A stretch of 64,000 nt of DNA, taken from positions 52,314,449-52,378,448 of the forward strand of contig JARDVH010000097.1 of assembly GCA_030324005.1 (NCBI GenBank). The letters are read 5' to 3'. Position numbers and translations under genes: made by a program. The stretch is from Negaprion brevirostris. Lineage: Eukaryota. Within the stretch, counting starts at the first letter, position 1, and the number at the start of each line of letters is the position of its first letter. The notes beneath the pieces were generated by a model that did not search any database, was not told the DNA's origin, and was given only the letters and a program-made list of their open reading frames with translations. Positions 1,885 through 60,580 of this stretch are shown here, in pieces.

Positions 1885-2308
1885 CTTTTTTTAAATTCAT
1901 TCGTGGCATGTCAGCATTGCTGTCTGGCCAGCATTTATTGCCCATCCCTAGTTGCCCTTGAGAAGGTGGTGGTGAGTTGCCTTCTTGAATTGCTGCAGTC
2001 CATGTGCTGTGGGTTCACCCACAATGCCCTTTCCCCCGATAACCATTGATTCCAGTTTTGCTAGGGCTCCTTAATGCCACACTCAGTCGATGTCAAGGGC
2101 TGTCACTCTCACCTCACCTCTGGAATTCAGCTCTTTCACCCATGTTTGAACCAAGGCTGTAATGAGGTCAGGAACTGAGTAAGCCTGGTGAACCAAAACA
2201 AGTTACTGCTGAGCAGGTGCTGCTTGATAGCACGGTTGATGACCCCTTCCATCACTTTACTGATGACCTAGAGTACACTGGTTGGGTGGTAAATGGCTGG
2301 TTAGATTT
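1885..2308 (-). mobile_element. CR1/L2-group LINE 3' tail plus RT fragments (same family as 56293-59305)
   Basis: cagcatttattgcccatccctagttgcccttgagaaggtggtggtgag is the reverse complement of the tail at 59225-59305; RT-region text resembles 58030-58200. Confidence 0.75.
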
Positions 2309-3253
2309 NNNNNNNNNNNNNNNNNNNNNNNNNNNNNNNNNNNNNNNNNNNNNNNNNNNNNNNNNNNNNNNNNNNNNNNNNNNNNNNNNNNNNNNNNNNN
2401 NNNNNNNNNNNNNNNNNNNNNNNNNNNNNNNNNNNNNNNNNNNNNNNNNNNNNNNNNNNNNNNNNNNNNNNNNNNNNNNNNNNNNNNNNNNNNNNNNNNN
2501 NNNNNNNNNNNNNNNNNNNNNNNNNNNNNNNNNNNNNNNNNNNNNNNNNNNNNNNNNNNNNNNNNNNNNNNNNNNNNNNNNNNNNNNNNNNNNNNNNNNN
2601 NNNNNNNNNNNNNNNNNNNNNNNNNNNNNNNNNNNNNNNNNNNNNNNNNNNNNNNNNNNNNNNNNNNNNNNNNNNNNNNNNNNNNNNNNNNNNNNNNNNN
2701 NNNNNNNNNNNNNNNNNNNNNNNNNNNNNNNNNNNNNNNNNNNNNNNNNNNNNNNNNNNNNNNNNNNNNNNNNNNNNNNNNNNNNNNNNNNNNNNNNNNN
2801 NNNNNNNNNNNNNNNNNNNNNNNNNNNNNNNNNNNNNNNNNNNNNNNNNNNNNNNNNNNNNNNNNNNNNNNNNNNNNNNNNNNNNNNNNNNNNNNNNNNN
2901 NNNNNNNNNNNNNNNNNNNNNNNNNNNNNNNNNNNNNNNNNNNNNNNNNNNNNNNNNNNNNNNNNNNNNNNNNNNNNNNNNNNNNNNNNNNNNNNNNNNN
3001 NNNNNNNNNNNNNNNNNNNNNNNNNNNNNNNNNNNNNNNNNNNNNNNNNNNNNNNNNNNNNNNNNNNNNNNNNNNNNNNNNNNNNNNNNNNNNNNNNNNN
3101 NNNNNNNNNNNNNNNNNNNNNNNNNNNNNNNNNNNNNNNNNNNNNNNNNNNNNNNNNNNNNNNNNNNNNNNNNNNNNNNNNNNNNNNNNNNNNNNNNNNN
3201 NNNNNNNNNNNNNNNNNNNNNNNNNNNNNNNNNNNNNNNNNNNNNNNNNNNNT

Positions 3254-3330
3254 TCCTATAATGTGGGGACCAGAACTGCACACAATACTCCAAGTGCGGC
3301 CGCACCAGAGTTTTGTACAGTTGCAACATA
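3254..3330 (-). mobile_element. CR1 (HER1-type) ORF2 fragment running into a gap
   Basis: Translation MLQLYKTLVRPHLEYCVQFWSPHYR is the canonical CR1 ORF2 C-terminal motif. Confidence 0.9.
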
Positions 3331-6649: not shown

Positions 6650-7320
6650 AAGATTCCCCACTATCAACATCAATACTGACCAAAAATTATTGAACAGGAC
6701 CAGCCATATAAATACTATGGCTACAAAAGCAGGTCAGAAACTGAGAATTCTATAGGATATAACTCTCCTCTTGACTCTCCAAACCCTTGATTGAGAGTAT
6801 TCCATTAGGTCAGGAGCATGATGGAACACTGTCCACTTGCCTGGATGAGTGCAGCTTCAACAACACTCAAGAGGCTTGACACAATCCAGGAGAAAACAGC
6901 CCACCTAACTAGCACGTCATCCACCACTTTCAATAACCACTCCCCCCATGGATACACAGTGACAGCAGTTTGTACCATCTACAAGATGCACTGCAGCAAC
7001 TCACCAGGGCTTCTTCAAAGGCATTTTCCAAACCCACAACATCTATCACTGAGAAAGACAAGGACAGCATACGCATGGGAACATTATCATTCACAAGTTT
7101 CTCTCTAAGCTACACACCAACCTGACTTGGAACTAAACCTGCTTTCCTTCACTGTCATTCGGTCAAAATCCTGGAAATCCCTTGTTAACAGCACTGTGGG
7201 TATACTTACCCCACACATTGAAAAAAAACCAGATCATCATCACTTTCTCAAGAGCAATTAGGAATAGGAGATAAAAATACAGGCCTAGCCAGCAACACCT
7301 GTGTCCTGTGAAAGAATTTA
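6650..7320 (+). mobile_element. 3' part of the CR1/L2-group LINE family seen at 56293-59305
   Basis: MEHCPLAWMSAASTTLKRLDTIQEKTAHL...AVCTIYKMHCSNSP plus a 3' tail; collinear with 58650-59305. Confidence 0.8.
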
Positions 7321-9959: not shown

Positions 9960-10272
9960 ATCATCATAGAATCCCTACAGTGTAGAAGGGGACTATTCAG
10001 CCCATCAAGTCTACAATGCCACAATCCCACCAGGCCCTATTCCCATAACCCCACATATTTACCCTGCCAATCCCACTGACGTGAGGGGCAATGTAGCTTG
10101 GCCAATCAACCTACCCACATACCTTTGGAGTGTGGGAGAAAACCAGAGCACCCAAAGAAAACCCATGCAAACACGGGGAGAATGTGCAAACTCCACACTG
10201 AGCGTGACCTGAGGCCAAAATTGAACCCAGGACCCTGGCACTGTGAGGCAGCAGTGCTATCCACTGTGCTAC
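9960..10272 (-). mobile_element. HE1-like V-SINE with CR1-type tail
   Basis: Collinear with 464-789; tail-to-tail with the SINE at 9663-9958. Confidence 0.9.
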
Positions 10273-10529
10273 CCCAGCTACTGTCATTCTTCTGGCAAAT
10301 CGAATAAACTAAGTCAAGCAAACGGAAGTGCACAGATGCTGCCAGCCCTGCTGAATATTCCCTGCATTCTCTATTCTCTTTACAGAAAAGGTTTTCAATA
10401 CTATCTTAGTGATGGGGATTAGCAGAGTGTACTGCACTTTGAGGCGGAAGGGGGATAGACATTTGCTCCAAGTTAATGAAGCGAGTGAAGTCCTGAGACA
10501 TTGTGGGTTTGCTCTGGGATGGCTCAGAC

Positions 10530-15370: not shown

Positions 15371-16640
15371 AAACAAAGAAAATTAAAGCACAGGAACAGG
15401 CCCTTTGGCCTTCCAATCCTGCATCGACAATGCTGCTTAACGGAACTAAAACCCCCTATCCTTCCGGGGACTGTATTCCTCCATTCCCATCCCATTCATG
15501 TATTTGTCCAGATGGCCTTTAAAAGTCACTACTGTATCTGTTTCCACTACCTCCCCCAGCAAAGAGTTCCAAGCATCCACCACTCTCTGTGTAAAAAAAC
15601 TTGCCTTGTACATCTTCTTTAAACTTTGCCCCTCGCATCTTACAAACTTATACTCCCGGTTANNNNNNNNNNCCGTGCCCCTCAATCTTGTAGCCTTCTA
15701 TCAGGTTGCCACCTCAACCTCCATCGTTCCAGTAAGAACAAACCAAGTTTCTCCAACCTATCCTCATAGCTAATGCCCTCCATGCCAGGCAACATTCTGG
15801 TAGATCTTTTCTGTACCCTCTCCAAAGCCTCCACATCCTTCTGGTAGTATGGTGACCAGAACTGAACACTATTCCAATTGTGGCCTAATTAAAGTTCTAT
15901 AAAGCTGCAACATGACTTGCCGATTTTTAAACTCAGTACCCCAGCCGATGAAGGCAAGCATGCTGTATACCTTGTTGACCACCTTTTCCACTTGCATTGC
16001 CATTTTCAGTGACCTGTGTATCTGTGAATCCAGCTCCCTCTGCCTATCAATACTCTTGAGGGTTCTGCCATTTACTGTATATATCCTATCTTTATTACAC
16101 CTTCCAAAATGCATTACCTCACATTTATCTGGATTAAACTCCATCTGCCATCTTTCCATCCAAGTCTGCAACCAATCTATATCCTGCTGTATCCTTTGAC
16201 GGTCCACATCGCCATCCACAAATCCACCAACCTTTGTGTCGTCCGCAAACTTACTGATTAAACCAGTTACATTTTCCTCCAAATCATTTATTAAGCAAAG
16301 GTTCCAGCACTGATCCCTGAGGTACACCACTTGTCATAGCCCTCTATTCAGAAATGCACTCTTCCACTGCTACCTTCTGTCTTTTATGACAAAGCTAGTT
16401 CTGTATGCACCTTGCCAGCTCACTTCTGATCCCTTGTGACTTTACCTTCTGTATCAGTCTGCCATGAGGGACCTTGTCAAAAGCCTTAATGAAGTCCATG
16501 TAGACAACATCCACTGGCCTACCTTCATTAATTATTTTCGTCACTTCCTCAAAAAACTCAATCAAGTTAGTGAAACATGACCTTCCCTTCACAAAACCAT
16601 GTTGCCTCTCACTAATAAGTCCACTTATTTCCAAATGGAC
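15371..16640 (-). mobile_element. CR1 LINE 3' 1.3 kb (RT domain to tail)
   Basis: QHGFVKGRSCFTNLIEFFEEVT, VYMDFIKAFDKVPH, SKFADDTK, WQMEFNPDKCEVMHFG, FFTQRVVDAWNSL. Confidence 0.95.
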
Positions 16641-21644: not shown

Positions 21645-22070
21645 AATATTCTACAGTAGGTGGCATTGCTAGTTAAGCCAGGATTTTTATTGCTCGTCCC
21701 TAATTGCTCTTGAGAAGGTGGTGGTGAGCCACTTTCTTGAACTGCTGCAGTCCATGTTGTATAGGTACACCCACAATGTTGTTTGGGAGGGTGTTCCAGG
21801 ATTTTGACCCAGCGACAATGAAGGAATCGTGATATAGTTCCGAGACAAGATTGCGTGTGGCTTTAAGGGAAGTGTGAAGGCATACTTGATGTTCCCATGT
21901 ATCTGCTGCCCTTCTCCTGCTACATTGTAGAGGTCATGGGTTTGGAAGATGCTGTCAAAGGAACCTTAAGGAGTTGCTGCAGTGCATCTTGTAGATCTGT
22001 GCAGCGGTGGTGGAGGGAGTGGATGTTGAAAATGGTGGATAGGTCACCAATCAAGCAGGCTGCTTTGTAT
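21645..22070 (-). mobile_element. 3' end of the CR1/L2-group LINE family seen at 56293-59305
   Basis: tttattgctcgtccctaattgctcttgagaaggtggtggtgagcc and gagttgctgcagtgcatcttgtagat match the 3' end in reverse. Confidence 0.8.
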
Positions 22071-24239: not shown

Positions 24240-24907
24240 TATGAAAATAGATAAGTCCCCGGGCCAGATGGGATTTATCCTCGGATTCTCTGGGAGGCTA
24301 TGGAGGAGATTGCAGAGCCTTGTGCTTTGATCTTTAGGTTGTCATTTTCTACAGGAATAGTGCCAGAAGACGGGAGGAAAGCAAATGTTATCCCCTTGTT
24401 CAAGAAGGGGAGTAGAGACAACACTGGTAATTACAGACCAGTGAGCCTTACTTCTACTGTAAGCAAAGTTTTGGAAAGGATTATAAGAGATAGGATTTAT
24501 AATCATCTAGAAAGGAATAATTTGATTAGGGATAGTCAANNNNNNNNNNNNNNNNNNNNNNNNNNNNNNNNNNNNNNNNNNNNNNNNNNNNNNNNNNNNN
24601 NNNNNNNNNNNNNNNNNNNNNNNNNNNNNNNNNNNNNNNTTTAGAACGGAGTTGAGGAGGAACTTCTTCACTCAAAGGGTGGTGAATCTCTGGAATTCTC
24701 TGCCCATTGAAGTGGTAGAGGCTACCTCGCTAAATATATTTAAGTCACGGATAGATAGGTTTTTGATAGACAAAGGAATTAAGGGTTATGGGGAGAAAGT
24801 GGGAAAGTGGAACTTCAGATACACCATGATCTTATTGAATGGTGGAGCAGGCTCGAAGGGCTAGATGGCTTACTCCTGCTCCTATTTCTTATGTTCTTAT
24901 GTTCTTA
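24240..24907 (+). mobile_element. CR1 LINE fragment with 3' tail (gap inside)
   Basis: KANVIPLFKKGSRDNTGNYRPVSLTS; RRNFFTQRVVNLWNSLP; (ttcttatg)n tail. Confidence 0.95.
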
Positions 24908-33889: not shown

Positions 33890-34995
33890 TGTTGTGGAAT
33901 GCTCCCCACTTGTCTGAATGATTGCCATTCCAGCACCTATTTTACATACCCAACAAATGAACAAACTCAAATTAACTTAGGGACAAATTAAAAAGGGCAG
34001 CCCCCCAAAAAGGAAGGGGGGATGGCCCAAACAGAAACCAAAGTCCAAAGGAAACTTAAAACATCAAATCAAAATGTGATTGTAAGGGTCTATAACACAC
34101 CCCANNNNNNNNNNNNNNNNNNNNNNNNNNNNNNNNNNNNNNNNNNNNNNNNNNNNNNNNNNNNNNNNNNNNNNNNNNNNNNNNNNNNNNNNNNNNNNNN
34201 NNNNAAATGTGATTGTAAGGATCTATAACACACCCCAGCCCTTGCCATTCCAGCACCACTTGAAAAAAAAACTCTCAGCCTCCAAGACAAAGCAGCCGGA
34301 TAATTGGTATCCCATCCACTACCCTAAATGCTCACTCTTGTATCCACTAATGCATCATGGCTACAATGAGTACGAATTACAAGATGCACTGCCCGTAAGT
34401 TAATTTGAGTTTGTTTATTTGACTGGTGTGAAAAGACCTGCAAGACGTACTGCAGCAACTCGCCAAGTTTTCTTCAATAGTACTTTGCAAACCTATAACC
34501 TTTGCCACGCGAAATAACAAGGGCAACAAGCAAATGGGCACACCACCATCAGCAAATTATCGTCCTGGCTACATACCATTCTGAATTGGAAATACACTGC
34601 TGATCCATAACTGTAATTGTCCCTTCTAGGGCAATGCAATAGAGTAAGGGTCACCTGGTCTGGGTGACCAATTAGGACTCAGAGCAGGGAATCACCCCAG
34701 GGAGGAGTTCTCCTAGTGCAGAGGTACTTTGGAGTTAGCTGCAAATATGCAGCTCTTGAAGATCATTTGTTAAGAAATTCCTTTTAGTTCTACTAATGAT
34801 AACTCCCTGAAAGTGTACCATTACACTGCTGCTGGCTCAAAATCCTGGAACTCTCTTTCTAACAGCACCCACAATAGTCAGACTGTAGTAGTTGAAGAAA
34901 ATGGCTCATCACCACCTTCTCAAGGGCAATTAGAGATGGGTAATAAATGTTGCTCTTGCCAGAAATGGCCACATCCCATGAATGGATTTAAAAAT
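33890..34995 (+). mobile_element. 3' part of the CR1/L2-group LINE family seen at 56293-59305, with three nested inserts
   Basis: Collinear with 6830-7320 after removing inserts at 33938-34241, ~34393-34440 and 34612-34825. Confidence 0.7.
33938..34241 (-). mobile_element. 5'-truncated non-LTR retroelement 3' end, probably Tx1/L1 clade
   Basis: Exact 16-bp TSD ttgccattccagcacc (33922-33937 and 34242-34257); minus frame GLGCVIDPYNHI(LI-stop) then a T-rich 3' UTR; clade from memory. Confidence 0.6.
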
Positions 34996-40159: not shown

Positions 40160-41030
40160 TTGGAACTTTTTAAATTTGTTGTTTGAGTTGTACATTGTTG
40201 GTAATCCTAATTACCTTGAAAATGGTGGTGAACCGCTACAGTCCATCTGGTCTAGTCACCCACGGTGCTGTTAGAATGGAAGTTCCAGGCTTTTTGACCA
40301 AGTGACAAGTGGAGGAATGACAATATAACTTGTTCAGATTGTATGTGATGGTGTTCCCAGGTGCCTGCTAACCTTGCTTGTGTAGAGGTTGTAGGTTTGG
40401 AAGGTGCTGTTGAAAGTGGCTTGGCAAGTATGGCAGTGTATCTTGAAGATGGCATATAGTGCTGCCACTGTGCAGGTGGTGGAGGAAATGAATGTTGTAA
40501 TTGGTAGGTAGGGTCTGATCACATAGACTACTTTGCCCTGGCTTGTATTAGAGCTGCATTGATCCAATTGAAGTGCTGAGTGTTCCACTACATCCTTAAA
40601 TGGTGCCTTTGTAGATGATTGGCTAGCTTTGAAGTATCCGGAAATGAGTTGCTTACTGCAGAATTCCCAACCACTGACCAATTTTTGGCAAGCCACTGTA
40701 TTTATGTGATCCAGTTTCTGGTCAGTGGTAAGGGGAGATGGTTATTGTCAGCCACTTGTGTGATGTGAATGTTGAAAATTCCTGATTGCAGTTTTGGTCT
40801 CTTTACCAAGGAAAAACACATTTGCCATTGAAGGGATTGCAATGTGGAATGAGGGGATTGCCCTGTGAGGGACTGAGTAATTTAGGCTTGTAGTCTTTAA
40901 ATTTGAGGTGATCTCACTGAAGCATACAAAGCTTTTAAGGAACCTGATGGTGGATACTTCCCCTGGTTGGTGTCCAGTACTAGAGATCAGTGTTTGAATA
41001 AGGTGTCAGCCAGTTAAAACTGAGATGCTC
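40160..41030. mobile_element. Decayed LINE pieces: minus-strand 3' end of the 56293 family (40160-40760) and plus-strand CR1 (40790-41030)
   Basis: gcagtgtatcttgaagatgg and ccactgtatttatgtg match 58700-59000 in reverse; gaggtgatctcactgaagcatacaaa is CR1 GDLIEAYK-like. Confidence 0.6.
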
Positions 41031-49898: not shown

Positions 49899-50251
49899 GG
49901 AGGCAGTGGCATAGTGGTAGTGTAACTGGACTAGTAATTTGAAGACCTAGGATATGCTCTGGGGGCCTGGGTTTGCTTCCCACCATGGCAGTTTGTGAAA
50001 CTTGAATTCAATAAAAATCTGGAATTAAACTTTAATGATGATCATGAAACCATTGTTGACTTGTTGTGAAATCCCATCTGGTTCACTAATATCCATGATG
50101 TGGCGATGCCAGCATTAATGTCCTTCAGGGACTTGTCTGGCCAATGTGACTCTAGATCCATAGCAATGTGGTTCACTCAAAAGGCCCTTGGGGATGGGAA
50201 ATAAATGCTGGTCCAGCCAACGGTGCCCACAACCCCCCAACAAATAAAAAA
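49899..50251 (+). mobile_element. SacSINE1-like Deu-domain tRNA SINE, near full length
   Basis: ggaggcagtggcatagtgg A-box head; cccatctggttcactaat..gtccttcaggg Deu-like body; gggatgggaaataaatgctgg tail shared with the LINE tail at 59225-59305. Confidence 0.8.
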
Positions 50252-51245
50252 TATACTGTCTCTGAACATTTCTTGTTTTTTTTGGGGGGGGCGGGGGGGG
50301 AGTCCAGATAGTTCATCAACAGTTGAATAAGCAGAGGAATTGTCTCTTGACAACAAACTTATCCATTTCTTCTCAGGATATAAAAGATTTTTCTGCATCT
50401 GCTAAGTTGTTTTGTCTTGGTTTACTATTAATAAAAAAGCACAGGAATGCTGTTGCTTCGTTTCTATGGTGACTAGTAAAAACCACATCTCAATTTCACT
50501 CCTTGGCCACCTGCGCTTAAAATGTTCACGTTTTTAGAATCAAAAGACGAATACCTCAAAGTATTTGATGATTTTCATGAGCATTGACTTGGTGTCTTGG
50601 TTGGCTTAAATATTTAAACAATATTCAATAGATGAAACAGTTTGTTTTACATTACCTTTCAACAAAATTCCACACATGGACAGTTCCTATGGCACACCAG
50701 CAGCACACTGGTTGAAGACTACTGCTCTATAAGGACCCATTGGTGGTGGTCCTTAAAATGGCTATGGGTTGGAGAATTTTGGCCTTCACAGAGGGCAGGG
50801 CTGTCCCCGGCCTCCACTTTTGTTTGCTCGACCATTTGAACTTTGACAAGGCCATTAGATGTGACCCCTGTGTTTGTGGGTCATCCAGTGGAGATGGGAA
50901 GCACAAAATTTCACTTTCTGCAGTTGTTTCTGAGCTGAGTGTCTCTGTTCCTGTTATTGATGTGGTTACTAGATTTGGTCTTTTTTTGGGTTTGATTTAT
51001 TTTGCCAAATTGGAGGTTATGTTCCTGGGCAGGTTAAGAAGTAAAATTTTATCGCTTTGCTGATTGGGTGTGTTGTCTCGGTTACTTTATCTTCTGCAAA
51101 TGCTATCTATCCTATTGTTAGCTAAGGTAATTTAAATTTATGCGTCATTTAGTTCTTTCAGTTCTGAATAAGAAGAAAACGTATTTAAAATTACCCAAGT
51201 TGCAGTTACCTGGCTCTAAAGGAGCATTAAAAATTTGTATATTAA

Positions 51246-56292: not shown

Positions 56293-59200
56293 GGAGGCAG
56301 TGGTGTAGTGCTAAACTAGTAATCCAGGCACTTGGGGGTAATACTGTGGGAACACGAGTTTGAATCTCTCCATAGCATCAGGTAGTAGAATCTGAATTCA
56401 ATAAAGTCTGGAAGTAAAGGTCTAATAACAAAACCATTGTTAACAGCCATTAAGTCTATCTGGTTCACTAATTTCCTTTTTGGGGAAGGAAAACTGCCAT
56501 CCTTAACCTGGTCTGGCCTCCAGACATAGCAATGTAGTTGATTCTTAAATGCCCTCTGAAATTCAGTTGTATCAAACTGCCAAAAGTCTCAAAGGAATGA
56601 AACCGGCTAGACCACTTGGAAATGGTAATGGCAAACTTGGTCCAGTTGGCCCTGCAACTGCCTCGGTACTAACATCTGGAGGCTTCTGCCAAAATTGGGA
56701 GAGCTGTTCTGCAGACTAATAAAGCAACAGCCCGATGCTGTCATACTCATGGAATTATAGCTTTACAGAGAATGTCCCAGACGCCACCTTTACCATCCCT
56801 GAGAATGCCCTGTCCTACCAGCGGTGGTGACACCCCAGTGATGTACAGTCTGTAGGGAATTTCCCTGGGAGCCTTCAACACTGACCTGGTACCAGGTCAA
56901 ACATGGCACGGAAACATGCCAATTATTACATAACCACACCCAGCTGCTGAATCATCTTGAACACAAGAGGAAGCATTGTGAATAGCACAATTATTTTCTG
57001 GGTGGGGCACTTCAATGTCCATCACCAAAAGTGTTGGTAACAGCACTACTGACCTAGATAGCTGGGTCCTAAATGACATAGTTGCTAAACTGGGTTTGTG
57101 GTAGGTGATAGGGAACCAACAAGTGGAAAAAACCTCCTCACCAACCTATCAGCCACAGGTGCACTTGTGTGATAATAGTGGTAGAAGTGTCTACTGCGCA
57201 GTTCTTGTTTAGACAAAATTCCATTTCATTTTGAGCATATCCCCCATTTGTGTTGTATGATGACACCACTATGCTAAATAAGAGCACTTTCAATAGTTCT
57301 AGCAATTCACCATTGGGAGATCAGCACTGTGGGTCATTAGCAGCAGAATTGTATTCAACCACAATTTGTAACCTTGGACATGATCTGGAGGAGGGAACCG
57401 AGTGTATGGTGTCGAAATTTGCTGATGACACCAAGATTGGTGGAACGGCAAATNNNNNNNNNNNNNNNNNNNNNNNNNNNNNNNNNNNNNNNNNNNNNNN
57501 NNNNNNNNNNNNNNNNNNNNNNNNNNNNNNNNNNNNNNNNNNNNNNNNNNNNNATTGAATGGCGGGGCAGGCTCGAAGGGCTGGATGGCCTACTCCTGCT
57601 CCTATTTCTTATGTTCTTGTGTTCTTATATCTCCTCCTCTGCCATTACTACCAAGCTAGGGGATCAATTCTGGTTCAGTGAAGAGTCCAGGTGGGCATAC
57701 CAGGAACAGCACAGGCGTACCTAAAAATTAGATGTCAAGCTACAACGCAAGACTGCATGTCAAACAACATTAGCAGCAAATGATCTTCAACCAATTCAAT
57801 TCACTCCGCATGATGTCAAGACATGGCTGAACACATTGCATATTGTCAAAGTTTGAGCCCTGCCAGCTATAGTATTTTATTACATTCCAAGCTATTTCAG
57901 TACAGCCACAACATTGGAATCTACCCAGCAATGTGGAAAATTGCCCATGTATTTTGTATACAAAAAAAGCAGGACAAATACAATCTGATCAGTTACTGCC
58001 CTATCAGTCTGTTCTTGATCATCAGTCAATTGATGGAAGGGGTCATCAACTGTACTGCAAGGGACATTTGTTCAGGATTACCCTATTCTGTGATGCTGAA
58101 TTTGGGTTCTGACAGGGTCCCTCAGCTCCTGATCTCATTACAGCCCTAGTTCAAACATGGACAAAAGAGCTGAAATCCAGAGGTGAGGTGAGAGTGATTC
58201 CCATGACATCAGTGCTGCATATCTCCCAAGTATCGATGACTCCAGATTTGTAGGGCGCAATGGGGATTGAGGGGCTCGTGGATGGAATTTTCCATTGTTT
58301 GGAGCCATACAGAGAAAGGTGGTTGAGGTTGTTGGAGGTCAATCATCTCAGTTTCAGGACATCCACTGCAGGACTTCGTCTGGGTAGTATACTCGGCCGA
58401 AACATCTTCAGGTACTTCATCAATAACCTTGCTTCCATTTTAAGGTCAGAATGGGGATATTGGCTGGTGATTGCACATGTTCGATACCATTTGTGACTCT
58501 TCCGATCCTGCAGCAGTTCATATTTAAATGCAGCTAGACCTGGATAATATCCAGGCTTGGGCAGACAGATGAAAGGTAACATTTGTGCCACACTGTGTCA
58601 GTCACTGAGAACCTAACCATCACTCCTTGACATTCAATGGTACTACCATCATTGAATCCCCCACTATCAACATCCTAGATGGTTACCATTGACCAGAAGC
58701 TCCACTGGATTAGCCATATAAATACTATGGTTACAAGAGCAGGTCAGAGGCTCAGAATCCTGTGGCAAGTAATTCCCCTATGATTCTCAAAGCCTGTCCA
58801 TAATCTACAAGGTACAAGTCAAGAATGTGATGGAATACTGTCCCCTTGCGTGGGTGATTTGCAGCTCCAACAACACTCAAGAAGCTTGACATCATTTAGG
58901 ATAAACAAACTGGGATCCTATCCGCAAATCTCCACTTCCCCTGCTACTTGACACAGAGTAGCAGTGTATGATCTACAAGATACGCTGCAGAAACTCACCA
59001 ATGCTCCATAGGCAGCATCTTAACAGACCCACAACTTCTAGCTAGGAGAAGAGCAGTAGATACATGGGAGGAACACCACCTGGAAGTTCTCCTCTAAGCC
59101 ACTCTCGATCCTGGCTTGGAAATATATTGCCATTCCTTCACTGTTGGTCAAAATGTTAAAACTTTCTCCCTAACAGCTTTGGGTGTGTCTACATGTACAA

Positions 59201-59305
59201 TTCAGGAAGGCAACTTACCACATCACCTTAAGAACAACCAGGAATGGGCAATAAATGCTGGCCTAACCAAAGAAGCACATTCCTTGAATGAATCAAGAAA
59301 AGAAT
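56293..59305 (+). mobile_element. Near full-length decayed CR1/L2-group LINE (EN+RT) with a tRNA/Deu-SINE-like 5' end
   Basis: Head 56293-56560 collinear with SINE 49899; EN-like NIW..LPKLGEL..KQQPDAVIL, WVGHFNVHHQ; RT-like MWKIAHV..Y.PISL; 3' tail gaatgggcaataaatgctggcc. Confidence 0.8.
57376..57628 (+). mobile_element. Younger CR1 3' fragment nested in the LINE (gap inside)
   Basis: DLEEGTECMVSKFADDTKIGG; gatggcctactcctgctcctatttcttatgttctt tail. Confidence 0.9.
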
Positions 59306-59347: not shown

Positions 59348-60580
59348 TATTCAAGCGAGTAGAGTAGATGATGAATTTTATAATAAACTTTAAAACATTA
59401 ATTGATCACAATGGAGAAATTAGGTCAGATCCTGAGAGGTTATTCAGCAGAAATTATGAACTTAATACCCTCCTCTTAAAGAATCCAGTTACGTAGTCAA
59501 CAAGATGCAACTATTTGAGAATAGAGCAAAAATGAATCAATCTGTGACTTTCAAAAGATCAACATCTACGAGGACTTCTGCACAGTGCACCCTGTGGAGG
59601 AACTGGGAATCGCTGACTGCAATGAGGGTGACAGTTTTGCCATCACTACTATCAATGTCTGGCTTGTTTCGAGTAAAAATAATTTTTTAAATAACCATGG
59701 TGTGGAGTATTAAGTCCTGATTTGATTAATCCTGTTCAACCTTATGACTGCTGAATGATTTGATTTTTTTTCTCTAGACGAATTTGATTATGGAGGTTAA
59801 TTAACCTTAATTTGGATAACTGAGTCTTTGCCGTAAATAGCCGTTAGTTTAGACTTAGTTTACTAAAAGCTTTGAAGCATTTTTTCATCTTAGCATCTCT
59901 GACCATTAAAAATATTTTGGTATTGCGCACAAGCAGTTGCTTACAATTTTCCTTAATCAAATTTTTAAAAATTGCTTGGAATGCTACTTTTGTTTTAACT
60001 TCAAACTTGATGGTCAATTGCTGTCAATGTTTTTCCTTTGGGACATGATAGCTGATCTTTGTGTTATTGGGTAGAGAAGGATGAAATTGGATTGGGCATT
60101 ACTTCAGATTGTTGGCTAATGGCCCCTACCACAAAATTAAAAGCGAATGAAAATCAATGAGAACAGCACTTGGATTCTGCTGCAATGAACTAGCATCTTA
60201 GTGCTTGCTGTCTAATTGTGGAGTATTAAATCCTGATAAGAATTCAAGCAATTAGAGCAGTTCATGAATTTTATTAAAGCTTTAAAAAGTAATTGATCAC
60301 AATGGAGAAATTAGGTCAGGTCCTGAGAGGTTATTCAGCAGCAATTATGAACTTAATACCCTACTCTTAAAAAATCCAGTTACACAGTCAACAAGATGCA
60401 ACTATTTTTCCAAGGAATTTTACATTGATTCAAATGTTCATTTTTGCTCTATTTTCAATCTGTGACTTTCAAAAGATCATCACCTACGAGGACTTCTGCA
60501 CAGTGCACCCTGCGGAAGAACTGGGAATCGCTGACTGCAATGAGGGTAACAGTTTTGCCATCACTACTATATCAATATAG
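59348..60580 (+). repeat. Direct duplication of a ~310-340 bp unassigned unit (59348-59656 and 60241-60576)
   Basis: Two high-identity blocks aattgatcacaatggagaaattaggtcag...gatgcaactatt and caatctgtgactttcaaaagatc...gccatcactactat occur in both copies. Confidence 0.9.

Follow-up and report, generated by a model that had tools for sequence, protein, structure and literature searches.

LINEs are usually held to be Pol II transcripts and SINEs Pol III transcripts, and one locus in the genome of Negaprion brevirostris raises the question of whether a LINE can be driven by the promoter of a SINE. The window (the whole stretch of 64,000 nt analyzed here, contig JARDVH010000097.1, positions 52,314,449 to 52,378,448) contains a LINE that opens with the same head as a SINE located elsewhere in the window. 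The original prediction read this element as a possible Pol III-headed LINE without ORF1 and as the possible parent of a Deu-SINE. The parts of the element and the other repeats considered below are the following.

1895..2308 (-), Zenon LINE 3' fragment, internally deleted
6693..7317 (+), Zenon LINE 3' fragment
15872-16640 (-), CR1 fragment, control family for T-runs
21686..22068 (-), Zenon LINE 3' fragment
24261-24907 (+), CR1 fragment, control family for T-runs
34438..34987 (+), Zenon LINE 3' fragment
40339..40731 (-), Zenon LINE internal 3' fragment
49899..50253 (+), SINE copy, rearranged (LINE head 1-275 plus tail)
56293..59305 (+), Zenon LINE, full-length decayed copy, of the older subfamily by its markers
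56293..56568 (+), 5' head common to LINE and SINE (family positions 1-316), with type-2 Pol III boxes and a non-Deu body
56301..56311 (+), A-box, mutated in the window copy
56356..56367 (+), B-box-like motif
56569..56667 (+), LINE-specific linker, with an Arg-rich frame continuing into the endonuclease
56668..57374 (+), apurinic-type endonuclease region (tblastn), disrupted by stops and frameshifts
57375..57626 (+), nested unrelated CR1 3' fragment, holding a 100-N assembly gap (57454-57553)
57627..59229 (+), linker, reverse transcriptase (RT) and C-terminal region, broken
59230..59305 (+), last codons, stop, 3' UTR of ~55 nt and A-rich end; tail common to the SINE

The architecture first described for this copy was borne out. 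An A-box was found at 56301 and a B-box-like motif at 56356, and in the family consensus both boxes conform to the textbook box consensus. Alignment confirmed the collinearity of the head with the SINE that begins at 49899. The endonuclease (EN) indeed follows closely, the SINE-shared part ending at 56568 and the first endonuclease strand lying ~100 nt further on, at 56668, an interval with no room for an ORF1; the RT and then the SINE-shared tail were both seen downstream of it. In pieces from sister copies, the endonuclease region matches the Pfam family Exo_endo_phos_2 (E 4e-13) and the RT matches RVT_1 (E 1e-6, just under the curated cut-off). The window copy itself is dead, with stops and frameshifts all along its length, ~18% substitution divergence from the older-subfamily consensus, and a deletion of ~265 nt at 57784. 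It carries 0 young and 6 old subfamily markers in the head and 2 young and 16 old markers in the body. The linker contains a conserved ATG at 56597, which in the family consensus falls out of frame. As for the 3' fragments of the family said to recur in the window, five were mapped, but nothing extends as far left as the proposed 33890 or 40160. The CR1 insert at 57375-57626, whose apparent length depends on the 100-N assembly gap, and the deletion at 57784 were both absent from the original prediction.

We then looked into whether the head belongs to the LINE. A query spanning the join gave 5,039 candidates in the own genome, from which 39 non-self matches were scored and 37 of these 39 retrieved. 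The join is covered in a single alignment by 23 of the 39 scored matches, and many of the retrieved copies are collinear from head to tail. A second query consisted of endonuclease DNA alone, which avoids selecting for the join. Among 36 of its 39 non-self matches (three short contigs were excluded), 27 extend at least 50 nt into the head, 10 have their start at positions 1-4 of the head, and 5' truncation at 315-498 affects 9. The same join aligned in 58 of 74 sequences (window copy included), a genome-wide recurrence that agrees with the proposal that the headed LINE amplified as a unit. We looked for a join unique to this locus and for a separate ORF1 or 5' UTR upstream and found neither; the upstream flanks have nothing in common adjoining the element, except in one pair with assigned starts inside the head. 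The subfamilies gave the same picture at 22 body markers: young heads are joined to young bodies in 20 of 21 cases (the remaining one is chained to a second copy), and old heads to old bodies in 13 of 13. For this comparison the groups were taken from the head tree and the body markers derived afterwards, and copies outside the grouping mostly agree. Head and coding body travel as a unit, have one 5' start, and co-vary between subfamilies. The target site duplications (TSDs) expected around whole units gave no signal against shuffled flank pairs, either for the LINE (n=8, P 0.09) or for the SINE (n=16, P 0.26), in copies that are 9-22% diverged. Three loci (L044:1547-2205, L056:1331-2365, and L129:2144-3605, oriented coordinates) hold single Zenon copies with large internal deletions at differing breakpoints, and at L054:765-4239 an internally deleted LINE copy stands in tandem between two SINE copies, all on the same strand.

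By its sequence, the window element is the elasmobranch Zenon LINE of Stuart et al. 2026 (PMC13343379), who describe Zenon elements without ORF1 and with poly-A tails in five elasmobranchs and whose Table S3 includes a few intact ORF2s from stingray, whale shark, and dogfish. In the first 400 nt, compared by eye, all seven elasmobranch Zenon consensuses from these five species (CarCar, HypSab, RhiTyp, and ScyCan Zenon-1; SquAca Zenon-1 to -3) open with the head and run in the same way into the endonuclease start, and over the same 400 nt of the consensuses of that paper, three family motifs match elasmobranch Zenon rows only. The junction is thus found in other elasmobranchs, as the original prediction would have it. 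The five Zenon-1 consensuses measure 3,244-3,314 nt, compared with ~3,290 nt for the element reconstructed here, and elasmobranch Zenon, like the latter, has no ORF1 and an A-rich tail; over the first 400 nt and in length, we saw no structural difference between them. The suggestion that the element might already be catalogued was correct: the LINE family is known, and the head lies inside its published consensuses (PMC13343379). Similarly, the absence of ORF1 had been set against the two ORFs of CR1/L2 LINEs; the absence stands, but it is normal for Zenon as described in PMC13343379. The main text of that paper contains no mention of tRNA or promoter and one of SINE, in the reference list, and we found there no discussion of promoter type, of a SINE derivative, or of T-run loss. 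In the open-access literature consulted, we found no description of the head, of its SINE, or of any Pol III-driven LINE.

Other comparisons bear on how Zenon elements differ from one another. Hagfish and coelacanth Zenon consensuses (PMC13343379) and lepidopteran Zenons have other 5' ends, the coelacanth entry being probably 5'-incomplete (39% endonuclease coverage). Six B-box spellings match only three elasmobranch Zenon rows within the first 400 nt of the CR1-group consensuses, which is a weak check on whether further LINEs carry such a head. In a comparison that covered CR1s and unnamed proteins, the element protein shares 27-31% identity with two CR1s and 39-40% with the single-ORF proteins with which it groups. 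A homologous-protein search gave one unnamed match, and cluster look-ups gave one uninformative name out of ten. An assignment to L2 or Daphne on the basis of motifs was abandoned when the consensuses of Zenon proved to match.

Two subfamily consensuses were built. The young one (3,285 nt, or ~3.29 kb; 47 copies, 16-47 per consensus window) carries one stop-free EN-RT frame of 979 codons, the intact frame that had been sought in a rebuilt element, whereas in the old one (24 copies, with a depth of only 4-7 over the 3' half) the frame is broken. The A- and B-boxes are present. No ORF1 was found in the consensus, nor any upstream sequence common to the copies, and full-length copies terminate in short A-rich runs that are eroded by age. 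Where translation would start is less obvious, as none of the 11-12 ATGs upstream of the endonuclease in the consensuses opens an in-frame start. An in-frame ATG within the SINE-shared part was considered as the start in older copies but rejected as a general start: in the commonest allele of old LINE, young LINE, and SINE copies it is followed by a stop at codon 3, and the young subfamily does not preserve its frame. Full-length relatives at 39-40% identity start with Met and a basic extension resembling the Zenon Arg-rich stretch, and for this reason the Arg-rich stretch before the endonuclease is probably coding. The conserved out-of-frame ATG lies about where P0006 and P0010, the closest headless relatives, have their start Met. 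Around family positions 290-440 (window 56540-56680), the A-rich linker of the young subfamily is shifted by a net one base relative to that of the old. A recoding event in this linker is possible.

The composition of the element offers a way to address its polymerase. The threshold for Pol III termination is a run of four T residues (T4+ below; T3+ for runs of three or more). Pol III terminates at oligo(dT) (PMC10498592), and the sense strand of the young consensus contains no T4+ against 4.7 expected and five T3+ against 22.7 expected, with runs of 4+ of A, C, and G near expectation. T4+ runs, whose absence from a rebuilt consensus had been put forward as a check, are missing from the old consensus as well, which has 8 T3+. 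In the ORF, 3 T3+ compare with 12.6 under permutation of its own codons (0 of 5000 permutations as low), although the absence of T4+ alone is not significant by this test (P 0.086). Raw, unpolished copies contain 0.56 T4+ per kb over 108 kb, compared with 1.98 expected. Under dinucleotide shuffles, TTT is modestly low (z -3.0 in the young and -2.6 in the old consensus, ranks 1 and 3 of 64), and CCC and GGG are likewise reduced. Two CR1 consensuses that were constructed in the same way from the own genome contain 9 and 8 T4+ and show no depletion. Among distant LINE-type metagenome loci (28-34% identical where measured), all eight hold T4+ in their longest frame, one of them with a mild T3 depletion (P 0.01). 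A sense strand that is free of T4 and poor in TTT favors Pol III transcription of the LINE, as far as base composition can speak to it.

We propose that the active Zenon LINE would be transcribed end to end by Pol III from its tRNA-type head. We consider this the most likely reading, with somewhat better than even confidence, given the T-run depletion, the absence of a usable AUG, and a fixed start that precedes the A-box by ~10 nt. Pol III would initiate ~10 nt upstream of the A-box and read through 3.3 kb, terminators being selected against. The uncapped RNA would be translated via a non-standard start, since no in-frame AUG is present upstream of the endonuclease, and the protein would bind to the tail at the 3' end and, like those of other CR1-group LINEs, make new insertions through target-primed reverse transcription. 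The idea of a Pol III-headed element thus holds at the level of sequence, which is compatible with Pol III, while the transcription itself is what we infer. Several points count against it. Exchange of heads between SINE and LINE could preserve the A- and B-boxes even if the LINE made no use of them; 3.3 kb would be exceptional next to the known Pol III transcripts and SINEs, which are short (PMC10886601); the lack of T4+ does not reach significance under codon permutation, and the TTT deficit is modest in the shuffles; there is no TSD signal, and ARAGORN and Rfam detect no tRNA; and the old consensus, to which the window copy belongs, is thinly covered and has its frame break.

It is possible, if on balance doubtful, that the captured SINE head serves as an ordinary Pol II 5' UTR and promoter, with boxes that persist via exchange with the SINE, and that T-runs are at the same time avoided for other reasons, such as splicing or polyadenylation signals, RT slippage, or RNA sensing. 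LINEs are generally Pol II transcripts (PMC5786205, PMC10886601), L1 is reported to recruit new 5' UTRs (PMC5381506), SINE/LINE head exchange is indicated by the tree and markers described below, and further homopolymer trimers are also low. But the 5' start of the LINE coincides with that of the SINE, ~10 nt upstream of the A-box; the depletion affects T alone among runs of 4+, is confined to one strand, and is not seen in the two CR1s of the own genome. Moreover, 11-12 upstream ATGs without a usable in-frame AUG fit cap-dependent scanning poorly. A precedent in L1, namely a SINE-derived 5' UTR, was looked for in the literature consulted and not found.

We then analyzed the SINE. Thirty loci obtained with a SINE query show that it consists of LINE positions 1-316 joined to 3219-3287 (the last ~70), with a one-base overlap and no private middle. 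Its consensus has A- and B-boxes at the 5' end, called against the textbook box consensus, and its 3' tail (the last ~70 nt) is common to the partner LINE. The prediction that the SINE equals the 5' end plus the 3' end of the LINE is upheld by 26 of 30 other loci, at which the join is present within 5 edits, but it cannot be read from the window SINE, which is rearranged and has lost the join. ARAGORN found no tRNA or cloverleaf at any of six loci, and Rfam gave no tRNA or ribozyme match in two LINE heads and six SINE loci; because neither program detects a tRNA, it is on the box motifs that a tRNA origin of the head rests. In a tree of 34 LINE and 29 SINE heads, LINE and SINE interleave (9 changes, with weak support), and a monophyletic SINE clade is rejected (p-AU 0.031). 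Most SINE copies bear young or old LINE head markers, and a few are mixed. Since the heads interleave and SINE copies carry either marker set, LINE and SINE ends were probably swapped after the SINE arose. Young SINE and young LINE have a tail marker in common (family 3219-3287), yet both SINE types retain a join-proximal base unlike that of both LINE types, which suggests one join, then later exchange of ends.

The SINE likely arose once, via internal deletion of the headed LINE, because capture of a finished SINE would have to hit the boundary between body and tail, which deletion produces automatically. As to the head, its likely source is an older tRNA-type SINE. The reverse order, in which a complete SINE (head, body, and LINE tail) existed before the LINE acquired the 5' part of it by template switching, seems unlikely to us. 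SINEs typically evolve through tail swapping and template switching (PMC5499810), and the other 5' ends of lepidopteran, hagfish, and coelacanth Zenons imply that the head was gained at some point. Such a switch, however, must have occurred within ~1 nt of the boundary between SINE body and tail, as no private middle is present in the SINE and no remnant of the tail at the 5' join of the LINE; and the pattern that deletion explains automatically has company in single copies with other internal deletions (L044, L056, and L129).

Derivation of the SINE from the LINE by deletion has a precedent in Persaeus, which is short and derives from lepidopteran Zenon with an internal deletion (PMC6740152), but Persaeus is described there as having no Pol III promoter or tRNA homology, whereas the Zenon SINE has A- and B-boxes. 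In the model of Kojima 2018 (PMC5786205), bipartite SINEs derive from RTE and Vingi elements, and the tRNA head is joined after the deletion; these SINEs and RTE-1_DAn of the same paper are among the closest comparisons. The Zenon case differs from this model, as the paper presents it, in two respects: RTE and Vingi are its sole contributors, whereas the parent here is a CR1-group LINE, and its head is added later, whereas the Zenon head is already part of an autonomous-type LINE.

Taken as a whole, the scenario would be that of an autonomous shark and ray retrotransposon that switched to Pol III, with terminators purged over 3.3 kb, uncapped AUG-less translation, a SINE derived by one deletion, and a shared pool of heads; judged from sequence, we place this full combination on an even footing with its negation. 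If true, it would provide a natural protein-coding Pol III transcript of 3.3 kb, cap-independent translation would be needed, and the LINE would give rise to the SINE in one step, unlike in models where the head is added later. The Pol III question is directly testable, given the abundance of the family and the published consensuses from five species.

For translation of an uncapped Zenon RNA, R2 and L1Tc provide a working analogy, as their RNAs are uncapped and thought to be translated by internal initiation (PMC6765202). R2 RNA is cut from rRNA co-transcripts, and the Zenon RNA could in the same manner be excised from longer host transcripts at the tRNA-like head, by an RNase P-like activity or a ribozyme, so that its 5' end would be uncapped without Pol III. 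The fixed 5' end would suit such processing, as would the uncapped, IRES-like translation described for R2 and L1Tc (PMC6765202). We nevertheless regard it as highly doubtful: R2 and L1Tc use an HDV-like ribozyme on the co-transcript (PMC6765202), whereas Rfam detects none in the Zenon head; Rfam gave no tRNA match and ARAGORN no cloverleaf either; and the loss of T-runs is left unexplained.

The Deu label did not survive, nor did the idea that the LINE is the parent of a Deu-SINE. A reading of the SINE as SacSINE1, with a Deu domain for its body, is very improbable, its one favorable sign being a weak collinear resemblance to the 3' half of a genuine Deu-SINE in a single alignment, which is not significant. 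We tested two Deu motifs, from EbuSINE2 and SINE2-2_CM (supplement of PMC5786205), and both are absent from the head, with 6-7 mismatches at best. One of them has 52 exact sites in the own genome, compared with 0 for a control, and 25 of these 52 sites define a separate SINE family of ~470 nt with a different tail, which we infer to be SacSINE1 itself. Against a genuine Deu-type SINE, the body scores at shuffle level in nine of nine tests (P 0.17-0.94), and profile searches in both directions reached a best E of 0.046, on the wrong strand. We rejected the identity of the head with Deu or SacSINE1 on these three grounds, that is, absent motifs, shuffle-level scores, and a separate Deu-SINE in the same genome. 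The central Deu/Nin domain that defines the Deu-SINE superfamily is not found in the SINE body, and the Zenon element has no bearing on the origin of the Deu domain. The Deu-SINEs SacSINE1 and LmeSINE1 resemble the Zenon SINE in their tRNA-type head, occurrence in sharks, and similar size class but differ from it in body and tail, as far as they are described in PMC5499810 and PMC4824008. A remnant at 10219-10283 (-) in the window matches the profile of a genuine Deu-type SINE (E 9e-5).

That a SINE fragment and a 5'-truncated LINE came to lie side by side at the window locus by chance has nothing to recommend it except the abundance of both repeats, and it is already refuted, with virtually no probability left, by the identical join in 58 of 74 sequences and in published consensuses from five species. 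Just downstream of the Zenon copy, the window also contains a direct repeat of ~250 nt, at 59349-59598 and 60242-60516, whose two units are 80% identical.
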